Below, in pieces: positions 1 to 20,600 of a stretch of DNA of 64,000 nt (position 1 is the stretch's first letter; every line of letters starts with the position of its first letter). Below the pieces are notes generated by a model. The model did no database searches. It was not told the origin of the DNA and saw only the letters and a list, made by a program, of their open reading frames with translations. The stretch spans positions 11,207,263 to 11,271,262 of the forward strand of contig NC_134028.1 in the NCBI RefSeq assembly GCF_964204645.1, written 5' to 3'. A program made the position numbers and the translations under genes. The DNA comes from Tubulanus polymorphus. Lineage: Eukaryota > Animalia > Nemertea.

Positions 1-230
1 GCGCTGGTGAAGTTATAAACATTGATATCGTCTTCCCGATAATTCAACTTGAATTATTGCCCATGTCATTCAAAAGTTCGTAATTCTTATAAATTTTTAT
101 CGACATTTTTGAAATTTTCAGGATCGATAGACATCTATATGTGGTGTTATGTGCTTTTTACCATTTTCAATTATCTTTATTAGTTTTCAAGTAATTGCTA
201 GTCAAACTTGAACAATACATTTTCTCTAGT
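1..230 (+). repeat. Left TIR of the ISL2EU-like element (partial, truncated by window start)
   Basis: gcgctggtgaagttataaac...tttctctagt matches the inverted copy at 4092-4218 and 17676-17776. Confidence 0.9.
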
Positions 231-395
231 ATTGCTGAAGTATATACGTGTGTGTTACTGTGTAAATGGAGGGAGTGCTTTCCAGCGAAAGTTAAGTTGC
301 GGTAGCAATCAGAAAACAAACTTCAATTTCAACAATGAAAATCGTTTTTTTAGAGGAAATCTTGATTAAAATAGGAAGAAATCATTTGGATCAAA

Positions 396-2564
396 ATGAG
401 TGACTTTGCAGATATAAGAGATTTTGAAGAGTCAAGCACTGGTATTTTAAGAAATTTTTTATGTAATAGAAGACTCTCCACTCAAGGCAGAAAAGAAGAG
501 TTAGTTGCGCGGTCGTTTGCTGCATGGGAGCAAAATGTTCCTCTCAAACTAAAAACTGCGGATATACAAAGACAGCTTGCAAATGATTATGAGAAGATTC
601 TAAAAAATATCAATAACGAAGATCCACTTGAGTTGAAACATTGGCATGTGGTGAAAGATGAAAAAAATCTACAGAACCTCGACTTAGGTAAAATATTTCC
701 TTTCATCATTAGAAATAGAGAATTTGGCGTCGACTATGTTGGAAGGTATAAACTCTGCAAGGCATACTCATATTTCAAGAGTGGATTTGTAGGAAAAATG
801 AAATATTGCCAGTGTTCCAACGCAACTGTTATTTCCGCCGACATTACGCCTTCCCAGAGAGTTCGAGGAGAAGCTAGATGTCCGTGGATAGCGTTCAGTA
901 AATCCGGAGATATATTGGCTGCATGGTGTACATGTCCTGCAGGATTTTCACAAACGTGTAATCAAGTTGCTGCGTGTCTTTATAAAGTAAATGAAAGTAT
1001 CGAAGCCATGAATAAATCGCCCGCCTGTACTGATATTCCGTGCACCTGGAACCAACCGGCATCAGATATTACGCCTGTTAAGATCAGGGACTTGAAAATT
1101 CGATGCGACAATTTGGGTAGCGGTGATCAGATTAGTGCGTGCAAAACATTTGACCCACGCCCAGAAGGTTACAGACAGGTAAATTCGTTTTATCCATTGA
1201 TTTAAATATGCAGTATTTTTTATGAGAGTTAAAATCAATTATTTTTCAAACTGATGATATCGCTTTTTCAGATCGCAGATATCGCTGGGAGAATGGAGAG
1301 GATGCATGTAGTATGCCCGCATGCAGCATTCTTAACCGGCATAGTTGACCAAACTGATGATTTCGCCAGACGGTCAAAGCTACCGTTGAATCTTCCACAA
1401 GCGGTCAACAGAATGTTATCATCAGGTATCCCTATGGCTGTATCGGATATTCTCCATTCACTACTACTTCAAGGCGAACAAAGACGCATAATAGAAGAAG
1501 CAACCAGGAATCAACGCAACAACAGACTTTGGAAAGAGCAACAACTCGGCAGGATCACAGCCTCCATTTCTCACATAGTGTACACCAAATTCGAGTCCCT
1601 AAAAAAGAATAAGAGGCCCATTAAAACATCGCAACTTGTGGCTGACATCATTTACGGCACAGCTCATAATGCATTAGATTACTTACAAGCCATACGTCAT
1701 GGAATTCGTCATGAAAATGATGCGCGACAAGCTATGACTGTGCGATTCAGCGTTCATCACAAAGAATTCAAGCTAAAGAGGACAGGTTTTATGGTAAGAT
1801 AATGTTACTTATTTCCAATTTTAAGTCTTACTAGACTTTATCCGTAAACGTTTATTGAACGCAGCTCTATTTACATGAAAAAAATCCATATCTTTTCAGG
1901 TACATTCAGATTTACCATTCATCGGGGCTACGCCCGATAATAAGACATTCTGCACCTGCTGCGAACCAAGTTTGGTGGAAATCAAATGTCCTCTGGTCGT
2001 ATACAATACGGACATTAATCAAACGTACGAACGATTGCCATATCTTCAATCAAAAAATGGTGAGATAAATCTGAAGAGAACGCATAATCATTACACTCAA
2101 ATTCAATGTCAGCTCGCGTGTTACGAAATGGAATCTGCATATTTTGTGATTTGGACTGGTTACGCTCAAGACCCATTACTTATCGAAAAGGTAGGCTATA
2201 ATACGTTTACGAATTTACTCAAACATTTTGGGTGTGATTTTGGATTCTGGCAGAAAATGTGTGTATAACCTTACATTTCTATTTTTAGATTGAATTTGAT
2301 CGCAGTTTCTGGTGCAAAGTGTCAGAGAACTTAGAATACTTCTACATGAATTTTGTTTTGCCTGCAATGACACTTAAGCCGCTATTTTTCTGTTCAATCT
2401 GCAAGAAAGTGTGTGTCGAAATAAGAGAAATGGCTGGGGATGAAGATGAATCCATCCAATGTACAAATTGCAAGTTATGGTTCCACACAAGTTGTGTTCA
2501 TGTCAAGCAATCTGTTATTTCTTGGAACTGTGATGTCTGTAGAGAAAAACCAAATTACTGTTAG
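396..2564 (+). CDS. Spliced SAP-like/SWIM zinc finger/YqaJ (lambda-exonuclease-like) nuclease/PHD-finger protein, about 623 aa; exons 396-1178, 1272-1793, 1900-2190, 2289-2564
   Basis: Three phase-0 GT-AG introns join the listed ORFs in frame. Motifs: CTCPAG..TCNQV (SWIM-like), W...GRITAS, GATPD...VEIKCP (PD-(D/E)xK), YTQIQCQL, and a C-terminal C4HC3 PHD (CSIC..IQCTNCKLWFHTSC..WNCDVC). Confidence 0.85.
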
Positions 2565-2672
2565 ATTATGTACAAGTTTATAATTCTGTTATTTATCGAT
2601 TAATCAAACACAAAACAAATGAATAATTATTTCACAGCGAATTTGAAAAGTCAAAGTTTTTGTTTTCGAACT

Positions 2673-3979
2673 TCAGTCACAGAGAGGCGGAAGAAGATTG
2701 CACAATGCCGAACAAACAATAATGATATCATCCATCAATGGTAATACTTTAATCGGAATAGTTGAAGTAAGCATACGATAGTTCTTGATCCTGCCAATAC
2801 ATTTTTCGACGTAGATTCTCGTGTTCGCGATTCGCGATGTAGATGTCATGTCATCTGATGTGAGCTGTGATCCAGACTGGAGACTTGGTGGTATCGATAA
2901 TGTTGCTCTGGCTAACATGAGTTCTTCTTGAATTTTAAAACCACGATCTGCCATTATCTGATCGTTTATCTCGAGCATATCTAGAAAGCCACTATCTTTA
3001 ACAATAAATTTGTCACTCGCGCGACCTCCATATCAAGAAGAAATATAGCGTATCAATCCCGTTGGAGACATTGCTACCAAGAACTTAACCGTACAGTGGT
3101 GTTTGTAGTCACTATACAACTGTGCCTGTATATCCAGTGCGGAGGGAACGTCCACAAAAATTTTGGTACAATCTATTATGCATCTGGTGTTTGGAAACCA
3201 CTTCACAAACGGTGCCGGCAATCCTCACTCACGTCTCTTTTAGTCGGCCACATAATCATCCATGATAGTTCCCTTGACATTAGACATATCCAGGTATTAA
3301 AAACCCTTGAAATGTGTCCTGGGCTCACATGAAATCGAAATCCTAGATCTTCGACTAACAAACCAAGTCTCAGTCTCATAACCACCATCAAAAACTCCTG
3401 CTCGTATGACAACTTTCTTTGTGGTCCTCTATTAGTCTTAGGTTGTTCAAAGTTTTCATCCTTTCTCCAGTATTTCATTACTGAAGCAACTGGTAAAAGC
3501 CATTCGAATACCATTTCGAACACACCCCGGCTCTCAAAGCCAGTGAAAAACCGTACGTCACACTCCTTGCATATGTCTTCAAATAACAAACTCGGTTGAA
3601 CTGTTTGCGTTGAGATTGCCACGGCCTCAGTTGCCTCCGTTTGCGTTGATATTCCGGTTTTCTTATATTCCTGCTTCTTGTATGGCTCATATTTCCGTGT
3701 TAGATTCCGTCTTGGCAGATTGTCACCTTCTTTCAATAAAAGTGTTGGAATATCTGGTTCAGTTTCATCGAAATGGTTTGAACAGATGTGATCGTTCGAT
3801 TTTGGAACGAAATCACGATCACCAATACGAATTGCTGTTATCCACTTTTCTCTTGATGCAGCATTACAGGGGAACGAATGGAATTTCAATTGATTTACAT
3901 GAGGAGCCTTGTACAAATGATCCGGCTTGTTTCGTTTATTTTCGCAGCTTTTCACAGAACATTTATCTTTCTTCCCCAT
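2673..3979 (-). pseudogene. THAP-domain + HTH + Harbinger/ISL2EU DDE transposase, disrupted
   Basis: THAP (CSVKSC..FHSFP..W..ICSNHF), LMVVMRLRLG..DLGFRF, IIDCT, YSDYKHHCTVKFLV, MADRGF, RIYVEKCIGRIK. Frameshift near 3220 and in-frame stop at 3033-3035. Confidence 0.85.
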
Positions 3980-4218
3980 TATTTTCGAAAACAAGTGCTC
4001 TTATTTCCATAGTTACGTTACATTGTGATGGCTAACAAAGTAGGAACCAGTAAAATTTTGAAATTTCCTGATACAAAGTTGCGCGTATGAGACTAGAGAA
4101 AATGTATTGTCCAAGTTTGACTAGCAATTACTTGAAAACTAATAAAGATAATAAAACGGTAAAAAGCACATAACACCACATATAGATGTCTATCGATCCT
4201 GACAATTTCAAAAACGTC

Positions 4219-4631
4219 AGTAGTATAGTCAGAGGGGGGTTCTGGCACAGCTAACTTTTGGGCTAACTGTGCTAATGTGAGCTAACTTTGAGCTAATGTA
4301 AGCTAACTTTTGGCTAATCTGAGCTAACTTTTGAGCTAATCTGAGCTAATGTCGGTTAACATCTGAGCTAATCTGAGCAAACTTTTGAGCTAATCTGAGC
4401 TAATGTTGGTTAACATCTGAGCTAATCTGAGCAAACTGTTGAGCTAATCTGAGCTAATATCGGTTAACATCTGAGCTAATTTGAGCTAATGTCGGTTAAC
4501 ATCTGAGCTAATCTGAGCTAACATTGAGCTAATGTGAGTGAATGAATGTTAATACCGAGCTAATGTGAACTAGTTATCGGGGTTATGTCTATGTGTTATA
4601 TGGAGCTAATGTGGGTTAACTATTGAGTTAG
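4219..4631 (+). repeat. Maverick left TIR with internal GAGCTAA(T/C) tandem motifs
   Basis: Inverted match to 17310-17669; carries one extra 54-bp unit. Confidence 0.95.
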
Positions 4632-4785
4632 GTATTTAGTTACCGGTTTTTATGGTAATCTATTGAGCTGGTGTGTGTGAAATTTAAAAACGAGATCATT
4701 TGAATATGGTTAAATCTGAATGAATATAAACATATGCAAATTATCAATTGTTTCGATGATTACGATCCTCGTTCTGAAAAATATC

Positions 4786-4834
4786 TGACGTCATGAGGGG
4801 TATATAACGTGTGTTCTCCAAAGGTGATTTCATT
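4786..4834 (+). promoter_or_regulatory. Putative Pol II promoter of the PC4 gene: CRE (TGACGTCA), TATA box, Inr-like TCATT
   Basis: TGACGTCA 4786-4793, TATATAA 4801-4807, TCATT at 4830 (about 29 nt after the TATA), ATG at 4848. Confidence 0.6.
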
Positions 4835-4847
4835 CGTTGAGTTGATC

Positions 4848-5698
4848 ATGGATACGCACACAACTCCGGTGTTGAAACGAAACATGTCTGAACCTGATGC
4901 TCCAAAAAAGAGACCTCGAAGACTGAATTTCAAGAATTTAAAGCTAGATATTAACGCTGCTAAGCCTGGTATGTATGTGTAATTAATTTGTTTGTTTGTA
5001 AAACATCCTCTCCTCCTTTGAGTTATTTATTGTTTCACTTGTAATGTAACGATATTATCTTTTCTTTTGTCATAGATACAGTTGTTAAAGAGAATGCTTG
5101 TGTACAAACAGATATAAAACTGAGTGAGTCTAAAGAAGAATACGTCTATGCGAAAGCGGATGTGAAACGTCATTATCTGGGCAATTTAGTGTTTGCGTGT
5201 GTCAGCGAGTGGCAGGATGTTAAACGTGTTGACATACGAACTTATGAACTCAGTGATGACCTTCGATTATTTCCAAAGAAATGCGGCATTAGCCTACACC
5301 TGCAAGAATGGGCTAATCTCGACTGGCATAGAGATTCCATAAATTCCGCCATCAATTCGTTTAATGAAAGCAACAATAACAATAATATCATAGAGGATTT
5401 TCGATTACACGTCGGTAGGAACCGATACGTGACCGTGTTCAAACGTTTCAATAAGGTTATAATCGACATTAGATATTTTTGTTATATAGCTGCAACGGAA
5501 CAACGAGTTCATACGAAAACCGGGATAGAACTATCTGAAAAACAGTGGGAGAAACTGATGAATATTTCTTTCGTTGATTTGGAACCTGAACTCGTTGGGA
5601 TGAAAGCGTGTATGTTCAATGATGATCATCAGAATCAGATGGGTGCTCTCCAGTGTGTTTACTGTAATCCTCATCCTGTATTCCAAATCGATGATTAA
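4848..5698 (+). CDS. Tandem double PC4 (p15/Sub1-like) ssDNA-binding/coactivator protein; exons 4848-4968 and 5076-5698
   Basis: Two PC4-like repeats (VSEW..VDIRTYE..PKKCGISL..EW and RYVTV..IDIRYF..TKTGIELSEKQW). A phase-1 intron gtatgt...ttgtcatag joins an upstream exon with basic PKKRPRRLNF in frame. Confidence 0.8.
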
Positions 5699-6137
5699 TG
5701 AATATATGTATCTCCTGTATCCTCAATCCATATATAGATAAATATCAAAAACTAAAGTCATGAATTATGTTAATAATCAAATGCTGGTTTTTTCTTTATT
5801 AATTTTAAAAAAGAATTATAGGGAAATTGGCATAAAAAAGTAGAAAAGGAAGAAAAAAACGGGAAAAGGTGCGCTTAGAGGGGGTACGAGTTAGATCCCA
5901 TCCCTGAAATAAAAAGAAATATAGAAAACACTTATAACGATATTAAACCAATGGTTTACCAACTTTCATATAATCTTAAATAAATAGATAAATAAATAAA
6001 TATATATATTAGTTAAATAGTTTAAAGTACAACTGAAAACATAAACGCATGTATAAGTGAGTGTAAATAAATCAATGTTTATAACTATGAATAAATAAAA
6101 ATATGCAAATATATATTAAGTATAACGACTTGTTCTT

Positions 6138-9100
6138 TTAATGATGATTTATCTCCGGAATTTTATGATGACCATAAGCATATGTGCTTACACCATCATC
6201 TAGTATATAACGTTTGTCGTCGTATGGTGATAATCCGACTTTATTTAAATTAACTGAATGTAACTTATGATTGAAGCTCCGGATAGACCGCATGTTAGCC
6301 ATCATACGTGATTGATTACGCAAGCAATCAACGTAGTTATTATGGGATACGGACTGCTTAACGACGTACTTCGCAACACCTTTTGCAGTTTTCTTTTCCA
6401 CAAGTGTTCCGTTGTTAACAGGAGAAAGATATGTCATTGAATACATCTTACTCCGTAAACCGCAGAACACTTTAACGGGAAAAGAATTGGTCTCATCCTT
6501 AAGTTTGCCTAGTACTTTCTTATTTTTGTCCGAGAATAAAGGATGGCCGGTGGGATAGGCTGAAAAGTCGAACTGGTCGAAAATCCCCGCCATATCCGCG
6601 TACAAATCGTAGCTGCGAATAGCGTATGTTAAACTATCCGTATCTGTAAAAAGAAGTTTAGCGTTATCCCCGTATCCTGCCTTGATGGTGTTAAAATGAA
6701 AATCATACATTAACGTTTTGCTTATGTCTAAAATTGAAAAGCCAAGATACACAGACTTATCCAACTTGATTGAAATCTGCTGTTTTTTTACCCCCACAAC
6801 ATTCTCCGAAATAATGTTCCATGAAATCGTAGATGGCTTCGCTAGAGCTTTTCTCAATTTCCCCGGTTCGTTAATAATTTGGTAGTTGATTCGATTCCTA
6901 ATGTTCTCCATTGTCTTGCCAAAACTTGCATTATTCAGTAATTTGTACATATCTTTCTCAAAATTGGATTTCGCATTTTTTCGGAATTCGGTATTCAAAG
7001 CAATGTACGGTGACATCCAGGCTGATTGTCGAAAATGGAGAACACGATGAATTTTGTTAATTTCATACCAAGTTTCATGTAAAGCCTCAAATTCGTAGTG
7101 TAGTAATGACAAGGATCTAATCCGTAGCTCTTATGAGCGAACTTGCGGAATTCCTCGAAAATATCTGAAAGTAGCAATACGTCGTTCTAAGATAGAGATC
7201 GTGATACTCGCCCATGTTTGCGTCAGGGTGTTGGTAAATGCCTCCTTAGGAGGGAGACTTGTCTCATTAAATTTCTCCGAACCTGTCATGTAGTCGTATT
7301 GGCAAACACCTTTACGTAACAAAAGATCAAGTTTATTGGCGGGGAACTCCGAGTTTAAATGAATGAATTTCTCTCTACCCGAATTGACCAAATTTTTCCG
7401 TAAGAGTACTGAGAGAGGTATTGAGAAATGCCAACGAGTCGATGAAGCGTAGGGGACCAAGTGTAAATCCGATAAACTTTTCAGTGTTCGTCGGGATCAC
7501 TGAAATTCTATACCCCCTAAATTCAACCAAGCCCAATGATCTAATAATTTCATGACTGTCATAACTTTTCAAGTTATGAAATATCAGAGCTATGAAATTA
7601 GGAACCCTATAACTCAGATTACATGAATTACAAGCTGGGCCTCTGTATTTGCCGGTTATATGATCGTGATCCCGACATTTCTTACCATTTATGGTTTCCT
7701 TACATATATGACAAATATCAGTTGATTTGAAGTGTGTTTCATCGACGTCGTTCATAACCAAAGGTTGAGGATTTTTGTAGTCCTGTAATATTTCCTCTGC
7801 TTTTTCGAGGAGGGATGTTAGGAATTTCTTCATAACATCGTCTCCTCTATAAAGGACTGTCGGATGGGAATGTCTGGTGTCAGGGCCAACGACTTTAAAA
7901 CAAAATCCAAACGGTTCATGAACCTGATAACGATATGTCCAAGATTGATTCTGGTTCAATTTACACCCCTCAATCGGTTCTAAAAACATTTCGAAGTCAG
8001 CATATATCACATATGGCAGTTTGTGCTGTTTTGTGACATTAACAAATTTCAAGACATTCTCATCTGTCGGTGACATGATTGTCTTTTGTATTCCTTGAAT
8101 ACAGTACCGAGTATGAACATCAAGATTCTCTTGCGATAAAAAAGAGTGCATGCACTTAAAACACCAAAAACATTTGGCTTTTTTTTTGTTTAAATGGAAA
8201 AGGAATTTACTAAGGTCATTTATCGAACAATAATGGGTGTTATCGTTATCAACTAGTAATAATAAATTAACATGATTTGTGCGTGGATTATCACTCAAAC
8301 GACGAACAAAAATATTTCCATCCTCATAGGCAAATACGTTAACTGATATATCGTTTTGCTGTTCGAAAATGGGTATTTGTTCTACGGTTACTGGATAATT
8401 GATATTGTTCATATTCAATTCGTTTCTGTACCGTAAATACTTAGATACTCGTTGGGGGTTCGTGTCCATTCGGTGGAGGTGGGCGAGTATAGACCATAGA
8501 AAGCACATATTGTCGAAATTTTGGATATTTATAACCCCTCCTCGTGAAACGATTACACGAGGAGAGCGTATATACGAACATCCACCTAATGGTTCATAAA
8601 TGCCGACGTGTAGATCGAACACTTCGACATAATCAAACCTCCAACGAGTACCCACAGTATTGTATTGTTCCAATAATTGGATCATTTTATTCTTAGCCTG
8701 ATCCAAGAGCTCGTCAAATTGTTCACCATTGAAAGCACTTCGAGTGTGGCTAGTAAAATACACAGTCCTTTGTTGATGGACACCATCGATATCTTTTTCT
8801 AAAATTATATGAATGCTGGTAAACCATTTTATCCCACCCAATCTACTTAAATCATCTTTAAGCAGTCGGATGAGATGCGGTTTGAGTTCGTTATAAAATT
8901 TAATTAAATCAAACTTGTTGTTTTCAGTGGATGGGAACTCGTATTTTCGTACATACCCCGCTAAGGCGCCACCTTGCCGGATCCCGATGAGGGCGAGAGT
9001 TTCCTCATCAAGATCCGGTAACTCTTCCCATTCCCATTCCAGTGGTGCCCCTCCTACTGCTGCTGCTGCTGCTGCTGCTGGTGGTGGTGCCCCTACTGCT

Positions 9101-9531
9101 GCTGGCACTGCAGCTGCTGGCACTACTGCTGCTGGCACTGCTGCTGCTGGCACTGCTGCTGCTGGCACTGCTGCTGCTGGCACTGCTGCTGCTGGCGGCG
9201 CCCCTACTGCTGCTGCTGGCACTGCTGCTGCTGGCAGCGCCCCTACTGCTGCTGCTGGCGGTGCCGGTGCTTCAAGGACCAGTCGCCGTCGTGCCGCTGG
9301 GATTGGGAGGGGTCTCGCACAACGTGATTGGTGCCTGTCCCGGTAGGCCGTCGTGCTAAACCCCTCCCCGCATTTGGCACAAAGCGGTTTACTCTTTTCG
9401 TGCACCCGGTTAATGTGCCGGGATCTCGAGCTGGCGTGTGCGAACACCAGCTCGCACATTGTGCACCCATACTGCTTGGGTAGGGCGACTGGTCCTAAGC
9501 TGAGTCGTTCTGATACTTGTTTCTGTGCCAT
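6138..9531 (-). pseudogene. Protein-primed family B DNA polymerase (pPolB) with N-terminal C2H2 fingers, terminal-protein region and EndoVII-like Zn domain; frameshifted and internally deleted
   Basis: YADFE, FHNLKSYD, FIDS (exonuclease); CRDHDHITGKYRGPACNSCN; KLLNNASFGK; FTDTDS; LRSKMY; DDKR. Split over four ORFs; polymerase motif A is absent. Confidence 0.93.
9043..9265 (-). repeat. Coding minisatellite (15-bp units, AAAVP/AAAVG) in the pPolB N-terminus
   Basis: Repeated ggcactgctgctgct units on the + strand. Confidence 0.9.
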
Positions 9532-9600
9532 CTAAAGAGAAAGAAAGGAAGACAGAAATAAATATAATGTGTGGATAATAATCTTTAAAATGAACGTGTT

Positions 9601-10281
9601 TTGAATAGATTGCTGTTAATTTTGATTCTGTTAATCTGTGGTAAAAGGCTGGAAATAGCTGATTTACCGCCGACTAAATTGCAAGGATGGTTCACGTCGA
9701 TTATCAATGGAATGACTGGTATCGGGAAGACAGTCTTTACTAAAAGATTGATTGAAGAAAGAATGTTCGATCCATTTCCCGATCGTATAGTTTGGGTGTA
9801 CGCCGAAGATCAGGAAATCTATCACGATACAGAGGGAGCTGAGTTTATTAAGGGTTTAACAGAGGAATTGTACGAAAGTTTGTCAGGTTCAGAGACAACA
9901 AAACTACTTATTTTGGATGATGTATTGAACGAGTGCGACCCCAGATTATTGGAGACCATTTTTACACGTGGTAGTCATCATAGAAAACTTCAAGTGATTC
10001 TAATATCACAAACCCTTTTCCCGAGAGGACCTCATTTTCGGACAATATCATTAAACACGCATTATATAGTTCTATTCAAGCATCCGAGGGATCGACTCCA
10101 AGTAAAGACTTTAGCGATGCAGTCCGGGTTAGGTAAATCGCTCGAGGAGGCGTTTACAGATGCGACCTCAATTTCACCGCGTGGATATCTATTTTGTGAT
10201 TTCAAACCACAAACGTCGGACAAATGGAGATTACGCACACGAATATTTCCAGCGAGGGATATCATATTTATTATAAGATAA
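9601..10281 (+). CDS. A32/FtsK-like genome-packaging ATPase (start codon uncertain)
   Basis: Walker A GMTGIGKT, Walker B LLILDD, TRGSHH, RTISLNTHYIVLFK. No ATG precedes Walker A; CTG at 9649 is a possible lost or alternative start. Confidence 0.9.
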   Translation: MNRLLLILILLICGKRLEIADLPPTKLQGWFTSIINGMTGIGKTVFTKRLIEERMFDPFPDRIVWVYAEDQEIYHDTEGAEFIKGLTEELYESLSGSETTKLLILDDVLNECDPRLLETIFTRGSHHRKLQVILISQTLFPRGPHFRTISLNTHYIVLFKHPRDRLQVKTLAMQSGLGKSLEEAFTDATSISPRGYLFCDFKPQTSDKWRLRTRIFPARDIIFIIR

Positions 10282-10328
10282 AAAGTATTAAATAATGTAA
10301 TTTCACGCGAACATCGTCAATTGATAAA

Positions 10329-10645
10329 ATGAGGAACCACTTGCATTTGAAGGAATTCGCTCCTCACTTAAGACTTTTATGCGATGGAAAGAAAAATATG
10401 CGCGATGCGATTCTGTCATCATCGTCGAACAGATTAGTGAAAGTTATTTGCGAAGTCTGTATAAATTCATTAAGAGGGAATATCAAACACAGCGAATCGG
10501 ATAAAAAGAAATTGAAGCGACATAAGAAGTGGATTCGAATAGACGAGTACCGATTAAATCGAAAAAATCATTAATCGTGCAAAAAGGCGGTTTCCTTGGA
10601 CTGATACTGAAAGGAATCGGTCGACTACTCGGGTTTATGGAATGA
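10329..10645 (+). pseudogene. Small basic virion protein ending in QKGG|FLGLILKGIGRLLGF amphipathic peptide (frameshifted)
   Basis: ORF 10329-10574 continues in another frame as VPIKSKKSLIVQKGGFLGLILKGIGRLLGFME* (stop at 10645); GG|F resembles an adenain cleavage site. Confidence 0.65.
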
Positions 10646-11379
10646 AGAACGTTGAAAAACTTTACGTTGTTCCGGAATCATTTATTCCAATGATTGAAAA
10701 AATCACATCAACCGATGAAAAGCGAGAATCTTCGAGTGGCGAAACGAATCGCGTGAAAAATATAGAAAGTCAAATGTCCGATATCCTTCAAATGGATAAT
10801 GATGTGAAGGACGATGTGAAATTGAAGATGTATAACGACGCGTTGAATAAACTAATGCAAATCGAAAAACATTCAAAGGAGTCGACGATCACTAATTCTA
10901 ACATAGTAAGTAAAAGCAGTGCATTGAATACCGATCGTGATTTAAAACGAACTACCGAAACTAAAAGTGAATTCGACCAGGAAATTTTGAATAACGTACC
11001 GATAAACTATAGAAAGAAATCGGAAATGTTATTGGAGCGAATAAAGCGATATTCCGAAATATTGTCATGGACCGATAAGGGGGAGATAATAGTAAAAGGA
11101 GTCAAAAGAGATGATAGTAATATCGTCGATTTAATCAATCTCTGCATGACACCTAACAAGTCTGAACAAATGAACGGACTCGACGATTTCATCAAGGCAT
11201 TACAAGATATGTCCGTTCCACAGACGTTTATCCCGAATAAATTCGTTAGAAATAAATTAATTAACAATCGCCCGAACGTTAAGAATGAATTCGAAGCAAA
11301 GATGACGAAGAGGAGGAGGATGACTACGCCATCTAAATATTCTAAAGATATAGATTTCGAAAATTGGATTTATATGTGA
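10642..11379 (+). CDS. Conserved-type Maverick hypothetical protein (245 aa)
   Basis: Intact ORF in the morphogenesis block; the LSWTDKGEII..SNIVDLI motif resembles Polinton uncharacterised proteins as I recall them. Confidence 0.65.
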   Translation: MKNVEKLYVVPESFIPMIEKITSTDEKRESSSGETNRVKNIESQMSDILQMDNDVKDDVKLKMYNDALNKLMQIEKHSKESTITNSNIVSKSSALNTDRDLKRTTETKSEFDQEILNNVPINYRKKSEMLLERIKRYSEILSWTDKGEIIVKGVKRDDSNIVDLINLCMTPNKSEQMNGLDDFIKALQDMSVPQTFIPNKFVRNKLINNRPNVKNEFEAKMTKRRRMTTPSKYSKDIDFENWIYM

Positions 11380-11407
11380 ACATATTTTTGTTTAGGGTAT
11401 TTGTAGA

Positions 11408-11451
11408 ATATAATGATAATAATAATAGTAATAATAATAATAATAATAATG

Positions 11452-11496
<45 letters not shown>
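11408..11496 (+). repeat. (AAT)n microsatellite
   Basis: Direct read. Confidence 0.95.
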
Positions 11497-11498
<2 letters not shown>

Positions 11499-11694
11499 GC
11501 TAATTTATCATCGGATTACCATTTTTATTCGATAGTCGTTGATACGTTTTGATGAATCTAATGTTAGTTTCAAATTCTAATATACGTTGTCGTCATCGTT
11601 GTCGTCGAGTGATCTATATCTGAAAGAGAGTGAATGGAGAAAATTTAGATTCTATCTCATTTTATCCAAGTTCACTTAGTATCTAGCTCTCGTA

Positions 11695-12232
11695 ATGGTA
11701 ACATCAAAAATGATCGACGTTGTTAATGTAGTAGCGACTGCAAATCTTAATTGTAAGCTCAATCTAGAGGAGTTGTCTAGGACAATGTTAAACGTAGTGT
11801 ACAACCCTCGTAAATTTAACGCATTAATTCTTAGGAATAAGCGCATCAGGGGCACGTGTCTATTATTCACAAGCGGGAGAATAGTATGTAACGGAGCAAA
11901 GTCATCCAGCGAGAGTTATACCAGTGTGCGACGATTTGCTAGATTGATACAAAAGATTAATACCACTGCCGCCGTTAGATTGACAGAATTTAAAATTCAA
12001 ACAATGACAGGTGTTGCGAAAAACGGGAATTAAAGTTAACTTATCCCAACTACACACGTTATTAGGTGGACGATATGATCCGGAGATCACCCCCAGCCTC
12101 ATATCTCGCTGTGGAAATGTTACATTTATAATACAACATAAGGGATGTGTGATTATTAGCGGGTGTAAATCTTTAAAGCAGATTATTTCGGTGTTGCCGC
12201 ATGTGTTGTTCAATATGCATATGTGTGAATAA
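11695..12232 (+). CDS. TATA-binding-protein (TBP/TRF) homologue encoded by the Maverick, with a 1-nt frameshift in an A5 run (12019-12023)
   Basis: VNVVATANLNCKLNL..YNPRKFNALILR..LLFTSGRIVCNGAKS..RRFARLIQK..FKIQ aligns with TBP repeat 1 (QNIVSTVNLGCKLDL..YNPKRFAAVIMR..LIFSSGKMVCTGAKS..RKYARVVQK..FKIQ). The next frame gives repeat 2 (YDPEITPSL..GCVIISGCKS). Confidence 0.9.
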
Positions 12233-12342
12233 TCGGGATAACGAAATGATGAAGTCTGATTGTTTACCGCAATCGCTCATTAACATTAATTGTAAAAAAT
12301 TCAACATTTCGTGTTGTGTGCAACAGTCAAAAGTGGAAGACG

Positions 12343-13415
12343 ATGTCGACTCGCCTGACCTCGGACTTGAAACAGATACTGAACAACCTGTACTACAACC
12401 CAGAAAACCCAAGCGCTTTCGGTGGTTTGAATGCATTACATCGCGCCGCGAAGCTGTCCGGAAATGAAATTGGTATAGACGTTATTAGAGACTTTCTGAA
12501 ATCGCAAGAGGCATATACGCTTCATCGTCCTACTCGCGTGCGTTTCAAGAGGAATAGAACAATAGTATCCGGTATCAATCAACAGCATCAAATCGATTTG
12601 TGTGATTTATCGAATATATCTAAGTATAATAAAGGAATTAAATATCTACTGGTTTCGATCGACGTTTTTTCTAAATTCGCTTACGCCATACCCCTAAAGT
12701 CGAAAAATGGTGGAGAAGTTAGTAGCGCATTCGAAGGTATAGCGATTAAAAGTCGTATGAAAAAAGTTCAAAGTGATAAGGGCAAAGAATTTTTGAATGC
12801 ACATTTTAGCAAGATAACAAAGAAGTATAACATTCATCACTTTACGAGCGAGGATACAGTGAAATGTAGTATTGTCGAGCGATTCATCAGAACGTTAAAG
12901 GGAAGATTATTCCGCTATATGACCGCGTACAAGACGAAAACCTATATAGATGTTCTTCCTAAGATTATAAATGCCTACAACAATTCGTATCATAGGTCGA
13001 TAAAAATGAACCCGTCTCAAGTTAGTGAAAATAATGAGAAGTTGGTGTGGGAAAACCTATACGGAAAAAAGAGTCTCTTATGAACAAACAGTACAAGTTT
13101 TCTATTGGGGATACCGTCAGAATCGCGAGATATAAGAAAGATTTCGACAAGGGTTATTTACCCGGATGGTCGCACGAAATATTCTCGGTTTCAAAACAGA
13201 TCCCGCACAACCCACCGACATATAACATTACAGATCAAATGGGTGAGCAGGTTCAGGGACAATTCTATCATCAAGAATTACAAAAAGTAATTAAAAACGA
13301 CGATGTTTACCGAGTGGAGAAGATTATAAGAAGACGCGGTCGAGGAAGAAACCGCGAGTTGCCTGTGAAGTGGTTGGGATACCCGACGAAATTCAATTCG
13401 TGGATTCCGGCATGA
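12343..13415 (+). CDS. Retroviral-like (RVE) DDE integrase with C-terminal SH3-like and chromodomain, split into two frames at about 13065-13083
   Basis: LYYNP, HQIDLCD, QSDKGKEF, VERFIRT, YNNSYH; then FSIGDTVRI..GW..E.F and YRVEKII..VKWLGYP..FNSWI. Confidence 0.92.
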
Positions 13416-14161
13416 GAAGAAGAATGCATGACTTTTATCTAACATTATTGAGCGATGGAAGCGTGGATGAATTTCCAGGAAACTCTCAAGAAAAGTTTAA
13501 AGTGAAATTGAGAGGGACGATTAACCTAGAAGGTAATTGGGAAGTCGCGTTAGTTCACATAAATTTCAATTGCGAATTCGACAACGTAATTACTGGAGAA
13601 TTTTATGTGGACTCTGGTGATGGACAATGGAGCGACGCACCGGCGGCGAATAAAATACAACTAATGTATAATGAGATAAGCCAACGAGTTTCGATTAGAT
13701 TATCCGATAACGCGAAAATTAAGTTCAGGAAGGAATTAGCCTGGGTGTTGGGCTTCCCTTCGATGCATGTAGTCGACGCCGACATTTTTAGTGATGATAT
13801 TACCGAAACTAAAATCATAGGAAAAGCAAGTTCATCCGATAACTTCGGCTACGTCAAGGTCATAGCGTCTAGACCGGTCGACCTTATGGCCGATAATCAT
13901 AACATCCTAATCTATTCAGAGTTAATTCAACATCAACAAGTTGGACACGATAGCGCACCTTTGTCAAGGATTGTAGGTGTAAACGATATAAATCAAACAG
14001 TTATAGATCGTGAATTTAGACGACCTTATTATCTTCCGCTCAGGAATAATCGACTGGACGTTATTGAAATCTATATGTTTAAGGACAGTGGTACTCCGCC
14101 CATCTTTAAAAGGGGCAAAGTATCCCTCGTGTTACATTTTAGACGAAAGTTGTTACTATGA
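13412..14161 (+). CDS. Minor capsid protein (penton, single jelly-roll)
   Basis: FYLTLLSD..FPGN...FKVKL...LEGNWEVAL and C-terminal YYLPL..IEI..D..G..F..G..LVLHFR, typical of the Maverick penton. Confidence 0.85.
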   Translation: MRRRMHDFYLTLLSDGSVDEFPGNSQEKFKVKLRGTINLEGNWEVALVHINFNCEFDNVITGEFYVDSGDGQWSDAPAANKIQLMYNEISQRVSIRLSDNAKIKFRKELAWVLGFPSMHVVDADIFSDDITETKIIGKASSSDNFGYVKVIASRPVDLMADNHNILIYSELIQHQQVGHDSAPLSRIVGVNDINQTVIDREFRRPYYLPLRNNRLDVIEIYMFKDSGTPPIFKRGKVSLVLHFRRKLLL

Positions 14162-14553
14162 AAACCGAATGTATCATAGATCAAGACGCTTGCTGTAATT
14201 ATTATTTACGGCAGGCGGGTGGCGGGAATGATTTCTATCACGGTAGACCGATACAAAAAGGAGCAGGATTCGGATCTATTCTGGGAGGATTATTCAGGGG
14301 AGCGATCCCTTTGTTTAAGACAATTGCAAAGAAAGCAGCACCACATATAGTTAAAGCCGGTGTCAACACAATAGGTGACGTCATTGGTGGAAGAGATCTA
14401 GGAGAATCGTTATTGAATAATGGTACAACAGCCGTTCGAAATGTATTAAAAGCCCCGAATAATCAGAGAAAACGTAAAGTAAAATCGAAGTCGAATAGAC
14501 GTCGTCGGGTGAAATGTCAATGTGGAACAATCGAAAGCCTGGAGGCATATTAA
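14158..14553 (+). CDS. Core/membrane-lytic precursor protein (adenovirus pVII/pX/pVI-like role inferred)
   Basis: YY..QAGGG, QKGAGFGSILGGLFR amphipathic segment, Arg/Lys-rich tail. Confidence 0.7.
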   Translation: MKTECIIDQDACCNYYLRQAGGGNDFYHGRPIQKGAGFGSILGGLFRGAIPLFKTIAKKAAPHIVKAGVNTIGDVIGGRDLGESLLNNGTTAVRNVLKAPNNQRKRKVKSKSNRRRRVKCQCGTIESLEAY

Positions 14554-14616
14554 TTAACTGATCGTTATCATTGTTAACATCTTCATTGTCATCGCCAACA
14601 TCAACACCGATATAAC

Positions 14617-15934
14617 ATGGGTTTGAAAGTACACAAAGACACGCACCCTGCACTCAAGAGTGAATTGGACATCTTTTCACTGCCGATGACTAATATCACT
14701 ATGGAGTCTGCACATTATGCTAAATATCAACCGTTAGCTACAATTACGGATAGCGGAAATATCGATTTTCTTATAACCGGTAACTCACAACATTATCCAG
14801 ATTTAAACCACACGTGGTTAGATGCAACGTTTAAAATTGTAAAGGGCGACGGCAGTCCGATGAACAATGACAAAGCAGGTGATCCTGTAGCTGCCCTTAT
14901 TAATTACGCTCAGTCACTATTCAGTGACGTCGAGGTACGATTCAACGATAAATGAATTAGTAATGGAATGGACTTACACCCGATTAGAGCCGCTATTGAG
15001 AACTTGATATTTTGTCAATCATCTACGAAACCGGGATGGATGGAAAGTGCTATGATATATAAAGACGAAGCCGGGCGTATGAACGATACAGATCCTAGAA
15101 GCGCGAATTGTAACTCGGGTCTCAAAGAACGTTATGATTTGCTGAAAAAGCCGAACAATCTCGTAAAAGCGCAACTTCGATTACACAGCGATGCGTTCGG
15201 ACTAGATAAACTACTTCTCTCGAATGTAACGGTTAAAGTTAAGTTAATCAGAAGTAAGGATGCATTTTGTTTAATGTCCCCGAATCCAGATGTAAAGTTC
15301 GAAGTGAAAATTGAAAACGCTACATTAAATGTACGACGAGTACAACTAAGCCCGTCAATTCAGTTAGCGCATGAGAAAGCATTGTCCACTAGTAATGCCA
15401 AATACCATTTTGTAAAAACAAGCATTTTTCCGGTGAATAAACCACGTGGAGTACGCAGTGTTATAAGAGATAATCTGATAATTGGAAATTTACCGAGGAA
15501 TATAATTATCGGATTCTGCTCGGACGAATCGCTGAGTGGAAGTTACGATAAAAACCCGTTCAACTTTAAACACTATGATATCGCTAGAATTGCGGTGTCC
15601 ATTAATGGGTCGCAAGTTGAAGCATCGGCAATAAATTTCGAGTCGAAAGACTTGAGTGAAGGATATTTCTCATTGTTCATTGGCACCGGTATATTGTATC
15701 AAGATAAGACAATTGGAATAACCAGAAAAGATTATGCTAACGGATATTTCCTAACCGCATTCGATGACACCGGATTTCGGATTCAGTGACCTGGCTATCA
15801 GTAAAAAGGGTTCCCTTCGCGTGGAATTGGAATTTTCAAAACCTCTACCGGAAAATATTAATTTACTATTATACACCAATTTTGATGAAGTGTTGGAAAT
15901 TACAAAAGACCGCACTGTTGTCACAGATTTTTAA
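14617..15934 (+). pseudogene. Major capsid protein (double jelly-roll) with in-frame stop (14953-14955) and frameshift near 15765
   Basis: KSELDIFSLP, QSLFSDVEV, LHSD, KNPFNFKHYD, LTAFD; continues in another frame as TPD..GSLRVELEFSKPL..LEITKDRTVVTDF* ending at 15934. Confidence 0.9.
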
Positions 15935-15938
15935 AAAG

Positions 15939-16406
15939 ATGTTGTATACCGATCAATTAATTAATATTTTACGCGAAGATACTTGTGCGAACAAATTGTT
16001 TAAAGGTGTCTACGCAGCTGATCGTTTACCCGAACCTCCTGAGTATCCCAGTATTTTTATTGTAAACTCTCAAAATAGTGATAAGAGCGGAGAACATTGG
16101 ATTTGTTTTATAATATTTGCAAATAAACAAGGTTATTTCCTAGATAGTTACGGACTACAACCGCAATTCTATAATATTATATTAAGAAACTATTTACATA
16201 CACACTGTCATTACTGGGATTATTCTCGAGTTAGAGTACAAAGTTTGTTTAGTACAAATTGCGGATATTATTGCATATATTTTGTAACTCTTCTCTCACA
16301 CGGTATGTGTTTTCCCGAGATATTCAGTAGTTTTAGTAAAACTGATTACGAGTATAATGATTATTATGTTAAACAATTTGTTAGCAAGTATTTCATTAGA
16401 ATGTAA
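15939..16406 (+). CDS. Adenain-like cysteine protease (155 aa)
   Basis: GVYAAD.LP, GEHW, DSYG, Q...STNCGYYC catalytic motifs; true ATG at 15939. Confidence 0.92.
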   Translation: MLYTDQLINILREDTCANKLFKGVYAADRLPEPPEYPSIFIVNSQNSDKSGEHWICFIIFANKQGYFLDSYGLQPQFYNIILRNYLHTHCHYWDYSRVRVQSLFSTNCGYYCIYFVTLLSHGMCFPEIFSSFSKTDYEYNDYYVKQFVSKYFIRM

Positions 16407-17309
16407 ATTTCATCTTAAAAAAGTGATAAAAAATTGTAAAATATTTTTCGATACAATGCAAAAATTTCGGTAACGAGTATACATATTTCACATTGAGAAT
16501 ATCTAAACATAAGAATTATGTAGAATTAAGGAAAATAATACGTAGCTTACCTTAGTAAATGAGTTTTCTTTCCTTAGTCTCCTTTGGTGACGATAATGTC
16601 GATGATGATGATGATAGCGTGGTTCTGCATTGTTGGATACTTCGACGCGTTGGAACGAAAAAGACCGTGTTGCGGTAGTCGGCATTTTTAAATGTTCGAT
16701 CAACAATAGGATGTTAAAATTTACCAATCAACGTAATTTTTAAGTTACCACAGAATCATACCATTGGTCTACTTTAAATCACGTGATACAGATGTCCGAC
16801 GATAAATTCATTTATGATAGTATTCTCGGAAGCAAAACCTAATAAATCACATTGAACCCAGTATTCATGATGAAGATTATAAAGAGAAAAAATGCCATTA
16901 CCGTCGGTGGGAACTCTCGAAATTACACCGGAGTGTTATTGTTCTGTATTCTCATTAACAGGTCATCTGAGTTCGCATATCCCAACTATCATGTTAGCCC
17001 CTATTGTTATTCAACTACATTCACCATCACATCCACTCCTGTCTGTTAAATTCATAGAATTTCAGACACATTCAATAAAAATATCTTGCTATACTTATAG
17101 TTTTGTCTCCCCTGTTTAATTAACACTCGAAATAATTACATCATACTTACATCATACATACCATACTTATAACATATACTTTGTTCTATCAGATTTTACT
17201 GAACCCCCTTTCACAATACTTTCAGAAATTTACTCATATACCAGAAATAGTATAAACAACCCGCTGTTAACCCTCATCAGCACAACAATAACACACATTA
17301 GCTCAATAG

Positions 17310-17669
17310 CTAACTCAATAGTTAACCCACATTAGCTCCATATAACACATAGACATTAGCCCGATAACTAGTTCACATTAGCTCGGTATTAACATTCATT
17401 CACTCACATTAGCTCAATGTTAGCTCAGATTAGCTCAGATGTTAACCGATATTAGCTCAAATTAGCTCAGATGTTAACCGACATTAGCTCAGATTAGCTC
17501 AAAAGTTTGCTCAGATTAGCTCAGATGTTAACCGACATTAGCTCAGATTAGCTCAAAAGTTAGCTCAGATTAGCTCAAAAGTTAGCTTACATTAGCTCAA
17601 AGTTAGCTCACATTAGCACAGTTAGCCCAAAAGTTAGCCGTGCCAGAACCCCCCTCTGACTATACTACT
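17310..17669 (-). repeat. Maverick right TIR
   Basis: Reverse complement of 4219-4631 minus one 54-bp unit. Confidence 0.95.
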
Positions 17670-20600
17670 AATGTCGATTAAAATTTATAAGAATTACGAA
17701 CTTTTGAATGACATGGGCAATAATTCAAGTTGAATTATCGGGAAGACGATATCAATGTTTATAACTTCACCAGCGCACATTGTTGCATTAAATTGATAAA
17801 TGAGTGATATCATAAAAGATTTAATTATCAGCCGAGTTCATTGATATTTTCACTTTGTTTCTATCTCATTCCAATCCAGAGATATGAACGAAATAAGAAA
17901 ATCAAACGGGGCAAAAATAGGGACAAAAAATTCAACAATGCGGACCCGGCGGGTACCCAAAAAATGGCGCCTGGAAACTGTAGGTAAAAAGGCTTATTAT
18001 CTACATTTTCAAATATAGGCTACAAAGAAATTTCGAACATAATGCAGATATCAACACTTGGCATCTGAACCAAACACCCCAGAAATTCGATACTTTATCA
18101 CAATTCGAAATTTTGATTATTCAAATCCACTTCAAGGAATTTCTACATTTCTAATCTACCAATCTAGTTTGAATGAGCAAATTACAAATGCCATATATTA
18201 GTAATTTCACAACACACCAATATTGACCACTAAGACTTAGAACTACAAAAGTAAATGTTGGAACAGTTGGTTGCAGGATACTGATGACCTATATTGATAC
18301 CTGCATAAAGCAGAGGCGGATCCAGAGGCCAACTTTGAAGAACTTGTCACATCCCAATAAAGAACTTTCATGTCCAAGGCAATTAGGTGTATCCCTGCAC
18401 TGAAATGTGCCAATTATCTTTGTTGACAAAATGAAAAAAAAATGTGCCCAAAAAATTTGATGGACATGTACAAGTCTCACAGGTCCCCCTGGATCCAACC
18501 CACTATAAAGCATGAAACGCATATATAGATTATGCCCTAATATCGTTGTATCATTCACCTAAACTGTGAAAACCACAACCTTTGGTTAGCTGCTTGAGAT
18601 CAAACATGAGCAATGTTATATGAGTAACCTCTATACAGACACATAGAAGAAATAATATGCTCATAGGTTCCCTTCTGGAAAGTCCCAAAAAGTAGCAGTT
18701 TCTACATTATTATCATATGAATAATGGATCTCCATATTCATCCTAGCATTGAACGACTAAAATCGTCAGTGTATCGGCTGAGGAGCTGTGCAGGTGGAGA
18801 TATAGTTTAATATGCAGTGCAGTCATGCATGCCACAGAGCTGATTGCCTCAGATTGCTGTGTGCCTGGACAAATGCTTAAATTTGTTCGACAAATCATAT
18901 GATAGCCAAACGTCGCTGTGATATGGTAGTTTGACATCGGTTACCAATTTTCTCATTTTTTGGTAGTGATTAGAACAGCAGTTGAGACCTATGGGTGCCA
19001 TCTTTATTTAGTACATTGGTAGCACAGTGGTATCTAACACAGTGATCATTTCAACATTTCAATCAAGGTGGTCTCAAATGTGTACTTGCCTCACATTCAC
19101 ATGGTTGCTGTTCATGTCAATGCATGAAATAATGTATCCAATTCAATTCACAAAACTTCAACAGCCATATATCACTTCAAATGTCTTAAAATTACAGCAA
19201 GCAGCAAGTCAAACGTAGTGGAAGTACCTAACAGTACAGCATTTTGAAGGATACACGTGTTTTCATGCTTCTTGTAATCTTAAGACATTTTCAGTAATAC
19301 ATAGCCATGGAATTGATGTATATTTATAATGGACACATGTGGTTTTTAGGTTAAAGGATTTGCTGGGTTAATGCATAGTTAGTTCAGATAAAAAATAATG
19401 CCCATTGAATTGGCAATGAAAATGGAATAATGGTGTGTATAGGTCAAACTTCTTACTATGCTATCAAACTAGCAAATTTGAAAGGGAAAATTGTTGAAAT
19501 TGCATATTCGCTTGGCTATGAGAATCATTCATTGGTCCTGCAAATCCGAAACAAATAAGAGTCTAGAGTACCATTGCCAGTTCATGCCCAGTTCTTACTG
19601 AATCATGTTATTACGTAAGCACTTACGTGCTAAATAATGCAACATTTTAATACCAATATCTTGACTAAAAATGTAGAGGCAGTTTTCTTGAAACAGCTTC
19701 ATCTTTCTTAAAATATCATTGAAAATTTCAACAAAATAACCGTGATATCAAGAAGTCTGGAAAATATCAAAGAGCTCAGCTGCATATTACAGGTATGTGA
19801 TTATTCAATATGGTTTCTTAAAACAGCATGTAAATTCCATAATTTTATAATTCAAAAATATTACTAGTTTCTCAATAATGAATATCACATTGGGCAGCTT
19901 TAATATTATATTTTTTACATGCTGTTTTTTAATTTGAAAATATCAGCATAATCAACTGATTTCTACTGAGATGTTTTTTAGACATGTTGATGATACCCTA
20001 ATGTTATTCTCTGAAAATCTTCAATGAATTCAGTTTATCTATCACTTGAATAATACAAAATAGGGCAAGCGATAAAGCAGTAGTTCCCAACATAAGAATG
20101 GTTTACAGATGGCCTAGGGCTCAAATGATGATGTTCATAAATCAGGCCAAAATAAATTCATAAACATGAATCATCTACATTATAATTGCAAAATGTGATT
20201 TAATGAATTGTGACTATATACTGGACAAGGATAGCTGAAAAATGTGCAGAGGACAAATTAAACGTTCATCAAAGTATTAGGGTATTCTAAGATGAACATA
20301 GGTCATTTGATTGAACTTCAACCAATTTCAATAATGTATTCAATGTTAGAATTATGTAAGTTCTCTCAACCGGCTAACAGATCCACAAAAAGCATTAATC
20401 TCTATAGAAACATACAAAGAAAGCAACAAAAGCAAGGAATTCAATGAGAAAAGTTCTCGAACCAAGCCCAGTAGCTAAGTTAACAAACATTTAATTGGTC
20501 ACAAGTTCTAAAGAAGAAACATTGCATAGTTATGTATTACCCCAAGGTGATCGTTGAATGTGGATTGATGGACGACGACGCTCTAGATAATATAGGCAAG

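Follow-up and report, generated by a model that had tools for sequence, protein, structure and literature searches.

A tandem PC4-domain gene at the end of a nemertean Polinton: a candidate single-stranded DNA-binding protein for protein-primed replication

Strand-displacing, protein-primed DNA replication usually needs a single-stranded DNA-binding protein (SSB), and the main texts of the literature searched name none for Polintons. A 64,000-nucleotide stretch of the genome of the nemertean Tubulanus polymorphus (contig NC_134028.1, positions 11,207,263–11,271,262; hereafter the window, whose numbering is used throughout) contains a 13.45-kb Polinton/Maverick (4219–17669), and the first gene inside its left terminal inverted repeat (TIR) encodes two PC4 domains in one chain. 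What does such a protein do for the element? We favor, with a probability of roughly 0.55, an early ssDNA-binding helper of protein-primed, strand-displacing Polinton replication.

The window element has all the Polinton hallmarks, namely AGTAGT TIRs, a target duplication, a protein-primed polymerase (pPolB), integrase, packaging ATPase, protease, and capsid proteins. The left TIR (4219–4656) pairs with the right TIR (about 17285–17669), the two agreeing at 363 of 370 aligned bases, and the 6-bp target duplication (4213–4218 and 17670–17675) matches at five of six positions. The PC4 gene is followed by PolB on the minus strand and then, on the plus strand, by the ATPase, two unnamed ORFs, a TBP-like gene, integrase, a penton-like gene, a small ORF, capsid, and protease; the capsid and penton names come from homology to genes of a complete related element (L122) and from gene order, with no Pfam match behind them. 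This copy has disrupted PolB, TBP, integrase, and capsid genes. PolB (6138–9531, minus strand), convergent with the PC4 gene, carries frame changes near 7380, 7190, and 7060 and a stop at 7131–7133, and the TBP-like gene (11694–12232, plus strand), 6 kb from the PC4 gene, has a frame change near 12020. Pfam revealed no further SSB-like family in the window ORFs.

Several features of the surroundings were recorded in passing. The Polinton is inserted in the terminal repeat of another transposon (1–4218 and 17670–17776), an adjacent copy of which encodes THAP/HTH_Tnp_4, DDE_Tnp_4, and a viral alkaline-exonuclease-like ORF, and loose read ends at 4219 point to other insertion sites of the same Polinton family. 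The pol of a Gypsy-like LTR retrotransposon, with protease, RT, RNase H, and integrase, lies at 42403–46464 on the minus strand. Within PolB, a Pro/Ala-rich tandem repeat follows a C2H2-like stretch in the N-terminal region (8990–9330). Immediately before the PolB ATG at 9531 come a strong pyrimidine tract and an AG (9532–9575, minus strand), just 57 bp separate PolB from the divergent ATPase ORF, and the sole minus-strand AG/GTRAG donor between 9532 and 17300, at 16550, closes a 135-nt ATG-led phase-0 exon (16685–16551, minus strand) just inside the right TIR. The candidate 7-kb intron (16551/9531) would span the whole virion cassette in antisense, an arrangement that we take to be reminiscent of adenovirus E2B, and both early genes may thus start from the two TIRs.

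The PC4 gene lies on the plus strand and is spliced as the preliminary description had it. Exon 1 (4848–4968; 40 codons plus 1 nt) encodes a low-complexity N-terminus that holds a T-P site, a basic NLS-like cluster, and an RxL-x-F motif (4902–4931), and it is followed by a 107-nt, phase-1, GT..AG intron (4969–5075) and exon 2 (5076–5698), which ends with the stop codon at 5696–5698. Together, the exons give 247 codons with neither a stop nor a frame change. As the exon-2 ORF lacks any Met before residue 172, it needs the exon upstream. The junction itself, 4968/5076, is seen as an exact 107-nt GT..AG skip in one contig of sequencing run X4, which has a depth of 2.6, is of unrecorded run kind, and offers 25 letters on the short side, below the tool's 31-letter mark; since this contig carries sister-copy letters at two sites, it may derive from another copy. 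Run X3, from the same sample, reads through the intron, and the splice joint is found in none of the 246 DNA reads placed from run X5. A rival AG at 5080–5081 is missing from the sister copies read.

The gene was also described as standing behind a CRE, a TATA box, and an initiator, and all three are present in a predicted Pol II promoter (4786–4835, plus strand) with canonical spacing (CRE 4786–4793, TATA 4801–4807, Inr 4830–4835), the Inr A lying 31 nt after the first T of the TATA box. The triple is expected 0.002 times per element-sized shuffle, for a pattern picked post hoc, but TATA plus Inr alone is at the chance level (one seen, the single such pair in the Polinton, against 1.7 expected). 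Among the related loci listed with at least 900 nt upstream, a CRE-like site occurs in 12 of 49 and a CRE–TATA pair in three of 49, and this rules out a conserved CRE early promoter as a family trait.

The gene is free of disruptions, as had been reported, but this carries no sign of selection on the window copy: with about six breaks per ~8.6 kb of the other genes, the chance of none in 0.74 kb is ~60%, so an intact PC4 frame is expected by chance. The nine classified variants among those listed comprise two synonymous ones in exon 1 (4868 and 4913, both of the exon-1 variants listed), two synonymous ones in exon 2, one in the intron, and four non-synonymous ones, of which 5277 and 5282 differ from near-identical sister copies and 5649 and 5651 come from a more distant paralogue. 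Domestication of the window copy, which was also considered, is ruled out by the chance expectation of intactness together with the non-synonymous differences from sister copies. Further contigs and reads match 5222–5259 and 5609–5692 at ~80–90% and then diverge, suggesting more diverged tandem-PC4 Polinton families in the same species. The PC4 gene is a real and probably expressed Polinton gene.

The presence of two PC4 domains in one chain is borne out by the Pfam check, in which PF02229 matches two stretches (E 1.5e-15; 56.9 bits against a cut-off of 25), and repeat 2 matches a solved PC4 structure by sequence (E 0.0015). Repeat 1 (5168–5368) is a four-strand sheet plus helix, repeat 2 occupies 5393–5581, and the Cys/His tail, which like the PKKRPRRLNF motif is present as first written, follows at 5609–5671 with the pattern C-x5-H-x8-CxxC. 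A word-indexed homologue search with the single protein returned 32 candidates and no homologue, but a HMMER (phmmer) search of cluster representatives did find relatives, 366 at E ≤ 0.001 and 70 at 1e-10, of which the best 150 were analyzed. The named clusters among the 20 relatives looked up belong to one nemertean and to bivalves. PF02229 matches 123 of 123 aligned relatives. Each of the four tail Cys/His residues is present in 97% of the best 150 of the 366 relatives, with the exact spacing in 113 of 151 rows, and these residues are predicted to form a zinc site.

An AlphaFold2 model built on a 123-row alignment (pLDDT 93.5, pTM 0.87) has two sheet-plus-helix units, and its secondary structure, beta4-alpha-linker-beta4-alpha in one chain, is the type I arrangement. 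The best whole-length fold match is Pur-alpha repeats I–II (3k44; Z 11.3, rmsd 3.7, 129 aligned, model residues 1–144), while repeat 1 superposes on human PC4 (6ycs) with an rmsd of 0.9 over 65 residues. Foldseek against the PDB gave no match at E ≤ 0.001, with PC4 and PURA as its top rows; these fold searches barely cover the tail (residues 146–176). The single-chain pseudo-dimer proposed in the preliminary description is thus what the model predicts for the two repeats, and a possible helix swap between them is implied by the single rigid alignment over 1–144 and the pTM of 0.87. BLASTP detects no similarity between repeat 1 and repeat 2, which suggests an old duplication. One large lineage (L122:11376–11897 on the minus strand, L003, L012, L063, and their relatives) has repeat 1 shortened or split by an intron, and in it only repeat 2 reaches Pfam significance, as would be expected if repeat 1 were the more dispensable half.

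Would such a protein bind DNA as PC4 does? Human PC4 contacts the backbone through R70, R86, R100, and K101, F77 and W89 are its stacking residues, and the loss of either F77 or W89 abolishes ssDNA binding (available text of PMC4350104). In the family, the Arg at the R86 position is kept in 95% (repeat 1) and 99% (repeat 2) of filled rows, and K/R is found at the R100 position in 118 of 136 and 128 of 150 rows and at the K101 position in 89 of 136 and 99 of 150 rows of repeats 1 and 2, respectively. The DNA-facing residues and the tail are the most conserved parts of the family. The stacking residues are divided between the repeats. Repeat 1 keeps the F77-position aromatic (116 of 130 rows) and has a W89-position aromatic in six of 133 rows. 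Repeat 2, whose hairpin is two residues shorter, keeps the W89-position aromatic (138 of 149); 11 of 149 rows are aromatic at its F77 offset, and an aromatic lies three residues further on in 73% of 148 rows. In the window protein, the W89 position of repeat 2 is Cys, and neither repeat of the window protein or of its two nearest relatives, P0001 and P0002, has the W89 aromatic, an argument against canonical PC4-type binding in this sublineage. That F77 from one repeat and W89 from the other might together complete one intact channel is unsupported, because one subunit binds each strand in human PC4 (available text of PMC4350104).

The segment before the core reaches at least 40 aa in 68 of the 150 best relatives and is shorter in 82, some of which may be incomplete gene calls, and the N-termini do not align with each other. 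PC4 coactivation needs a lysine-rich N-terminal region (PMC2592824, part of the text), and this region is not conserved in the family; exon 1 of the window gene offers a short basic cluster with no serine/acidic run (SEAC). Basic NLS-like clusters are nevertheless enriched among the relatives (31 of 68 long N-termini against 10.8 in shuffles). The RRLNF of exon 1 fits the cyclin-docking core [RK]xLx{0,1}[FL], in a region whose disorder was judged from composition; RxLF and RxLxF are the best cores of this consensus, and cyclin binding was seen for fewer than 15% of strict RxL matches (available sections of PMC12356897). The cyclin-docking motif noted at first therefore stands as an enriched pattern, [RK]xLx?F being found in 15 of the 68 long N-termini against 3.3 in K/R-fixed shuffles (maximum 10; none of 1,000 reached 15), but matching the consensus predicts binding poorly, some of the 15 matches are weak, and 53 of the 68 have no motif. 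S/T-P sites lie 8–45 aa upstream of the motif in seven of the 15 (3.35 expected; 39 of 2,000 shuffles), and their enrichment across whole N-termini is not significant (69 against 60.9 ± 7.1). A JNK-type docking reading of KRPRRLNF, with the motif RPxxLx[LFIV], is ruled out by its occurrence in one of the 68 relatives. An N-terminal CARD is found in three of 123 rows, in some relatives the N-terminus bears a CARD or a zinc knuckle (P0003, P0021, P0023, P0179; L014:300–1031), and a BIR (IAP) gene adjoins PC4 in L059 (1634–2209).

These N-termini invite the reading that the PC4 core is a DNA-tethered carrier of swappable host-control motifs, in the style of the early proteins of DNA viruses, with cyclin docking favoring S phase and CARD decoys against cell death. 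The enriched docking motif with its upstream S/T-P sites, the CARDs, and the adjoining BIR gene would all fit, and a terminal, inward-facing position suits an immediate-early gene. We nonetheless regard a host-modulating protein as distinctly unlikely, given that most N-termini are short or without the motif, that few strict RxL matches bind cyclins, and that conservation peaks in the DNA-facing residues and the tail.

To place the gene in other elements, a tail-motif scan was made, which gave at least 121 loci (at least one viral and at least 120 metagenomic). The 121 loci listed form 58 clusters at 70% identity and are not independent, many coming from few host types; 40 of them hold ≤644 bp, L001 was replaced by the full contig L122, and L123, a capsid-search locus, was left out. 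Searches of viral contigs with the single PC4 protein and with a TBP alignment gave no related loci, and a capsid alignment gave two. A Polinton gene accompanies PC4 in 43 of the 121 loci listed and in 36 of the 57 that are at least 2 kb long. No Polinton gene lies upstream of PC4 in any of the 43 listed loci, 11 of which have at least 1.5 kb there. In L122, a complete 12,321-bp element bounded by TIRs on both sides and carrying PolB and capsid genes, the PC4 gene lies just inside one TIR, pointing inward. The first downstream gene in the 43 listed loci is a convergent protease in 33, integrase in three, ATPase in three, TBP in three, and PolB in one, to which the window adds a second case of PolB adjoining the PC4 gene.

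The mostly tail-to-tail position with the virion cassette could be taken to suggest a Pur-alpha-like binder of RNA or structured nucleic acids that serves viral transcripts, integration, or packaging instead of replication. The type I architecture is common to Pur-alpha and MRP1/2, which bind RNA (PMC7549692, in the text available), and the loss of the W89 aromatic could reflect a changed binding mode. The sequence, however, is PC4-derived and not PUR, with PF02229 in every aligned row, and the protease neighbor follows from the terminal position, so we consider this the least probable of the readings weighed here.

The preliminary description saw in the gene a general-cofactor mimic partnering the element's TBP, and this claim largely fails. 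As a transcription cofactor, the protein would open or stabilize promoters together with that TBP. The window does carry both genes, and a TBP profile added L011 and L021, so that TBP directly follows PC4, co-oriented, in five of the 121 loci listed, within ~30 nt of the PC4 stop in L009 and L051. The TFIID–TFIIA step is where human PC4 acts (PMC2592824, part of the text), exon 1 has a basic cluster, NLS-like clusters are enriched among the relatives, and the phage ssDNA-binding protein Drc, whose sheet partly resembles that of PC4, regulates transcription (PMC7145618, part of the text). The co-occurrence of the two genes across elements argues the other way. TBP is missing from the complete L122 and from all eight listed loci that span ATPase to integrase, the slot of TBP in the window (seven clusters at 70% identity). 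The four-row TBP profile found nothing else below E 1.9 in 8,838 ORFs, a search that a very divergent TBP could escape, and Pfam PF00352 matched none of 96 ORFs (87 from the list of 303 unassigned plus nine further PC4 ORFs). In a PC4 tree of 41 rows, from which L004 and L006 were dropped as too short, four of the five TBP-adjacent loci fall in one clade (100/96) with L041, which has no adjacent TBP; L051 stands apart, and the window protein groups elsewhere, with P0001 and P0002 (100/99). The N-terminus needed for coactivation is, moreover, replaced by unalignable or absent segments, a CARD, or a zinc knuckle. A complex prediction for the adjacent TBP of L009 and the tandem PC4 protein, made with no alignments, scored 0.02 and is counted neither for nor against the pairing. 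Intact 170-aa, core-only TBP-like genes are present at L009:709–1224, L051:222–737, and L065:1201–1710, 45–48% identical to each other and 34% identical to the N-terminal piece of the window TBP. The PC4 gene is thus TBP-independent in general, and the pairing is at most confined to one or two lineages, to which the window protein does not belong; a cofactor role is unlikely.

The preferred reading, an SSB for Polinton replication, is left to be weighed on its own evidence. Viruses with protein-primed polymerases often encode SSBs that are unrelated to OB-fold proteins (PMC4889955, text in part), and this analogy, the lack of any other SSB-like family in the window, and the PC4 homologue of bacteriophage T5 make an SSB plausible, as do the modeled fold, the kept backbone-contact residues, the linkage to Polintons, and the TBP-less complete L122. 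The incomplete set of F77/W89 stacking aromatics in each repeat counts against it, and so do the usual neighbor, a protease rather than PolB (the latter in one of the 43 listed loci and the window), the TBP that directly follows PC4 in five of the loci listed, and the further roles of PC4-fold proteins in transcription and RNA binding (available text of PMC7549692).

As an SSB, the protein may work as follows. Host Pol II would transcribe the gene early from the promoter just inside the TIR, and the basic cluster of exon 1 would direct nuclear import of the product, which would fold as an asymmetric pseudo-dimer and bind the displaced strand or the melted termini during protein-primed replication. 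Repeat 2 would do most of the binding, and repeat 1 would be partly degenerate. Fusing the two repeats into one chain allows asymmetry and prevents mixed dimers with host PC4. In roughly one in five family members, the window protein included, the RxL-x-F motif may tie this activity to S phase through cyclin–CDK docking. A bolder scenario, offered tentatively and with more doubt than belief, is that a host PC4 was captured and two copies were fused into an asymmetric, zinc-capped, single-chain SSB unmixable with host PC4, which is expressed first from the genome end, is gated by cyclin–CDK docking, and is the missing functional counterpart of adenovirus DBP, with one lineage later pairing it with a viral TBP in an early module of two genes.

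The interest of the gene is that an SSB candidate that is widespread (366 clusters at E ≤ 0.001), terminal, putatively early, and probably expressed makes the gap in Polinton replication testable with one small recombinant protein. Such a role would recast many genes annotated as 'PC4 domain-containing' in molluscs and nemerteans as Polinton genes, and it would show cleanly how a host factor that works as a homodimer can become an asymmetric single chain.

Among known systems, the best viral match of the predicted structure is the adintovirus 'MOSUB' (UniProt A0A5H3CIS2, from a Branchiostoma lancelet adintovirus; also A0A5H3CT48), with E 1.5e-6, TM 0.66, 169 columns, and 18% identity. Both genes belong to the same element class, a PC4/MoSub1-like gene in a TIR element bearing integrase and pPolB, and the likeness is known from this one structure-search match. 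In the available part of Starrett 2021 (PMC8502044), the MOSUB label appears once, beside an ITR, in Suppl. Fig. S2, where 'SSDBP' genes are also labeled; the main text available mentions MOSUB zero times, and no tandem build, tail, intron, or RxL motif is reported for it there. The window gene is probably a member of the family already labeled MOSUB, and the gene itself is not new. The term PC4 is absent from PMC11071296, PMC11161782, PMC11131425, and PMC10748475, and a tandem-PC4 Polinton family is undescribed in the open-access literature searched on Polintons, adintoviruses, PC4, and TBP. The asymmetric repeats, the terminal inward-facing gene, and the RxL-x-F-enriched N-termini were likewise not found in the literature searched.

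A functional parallel is adenovirus E2A DBP, which is made early, acts in the nucleus, contains zinc, and binds ssDNA during protein-primed strand displacement; its N-terminus is disordered and phosphorylated, and its fold is unrelated to that of PC4. It is not among the fold matches listed, which neither includes nor excludes a likeness. Bacteriophage T5 is not known to use protein priming. Its PC4 homologue, implicated in replication by the title of PDB entry 4bg7, is likewise a virus-encoded PC4 fold, but it is a single-repeat homodimer with no Cys/His tail in the 56 columns matched. Each repeat of the window protein has the PC4 signature and fold of the human PC4/SUB1 C-terminal domain and of fungal Sub1/MoSub1 (1pcf, 6ycs, 4bhm), and the R86, R100, and K101 equivalents are mostly kept in the family. 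In contrast to PC4/Sub1, the window protein is a single chain rather than a type II homodimer of one-repeat subunits, neither repeat has aromatics at both F77 and W89, a C3H tail is added, and there is no SEAC or conserved lysine-rich N-terminus. Pur-alpha, Whirly, and MRP1/2 have type I PC4-like domains in a single-chain arrangement (PMC7549692, in the text available). The window protein shares with Pur-alpha I–II, Whirly, and MRP1/2 the two beta4-alpha repeats per chain, but the identity is 11% and no PUR or Whirly Pfam match is found; it is likely an independent fusion of true PC4 repeats.
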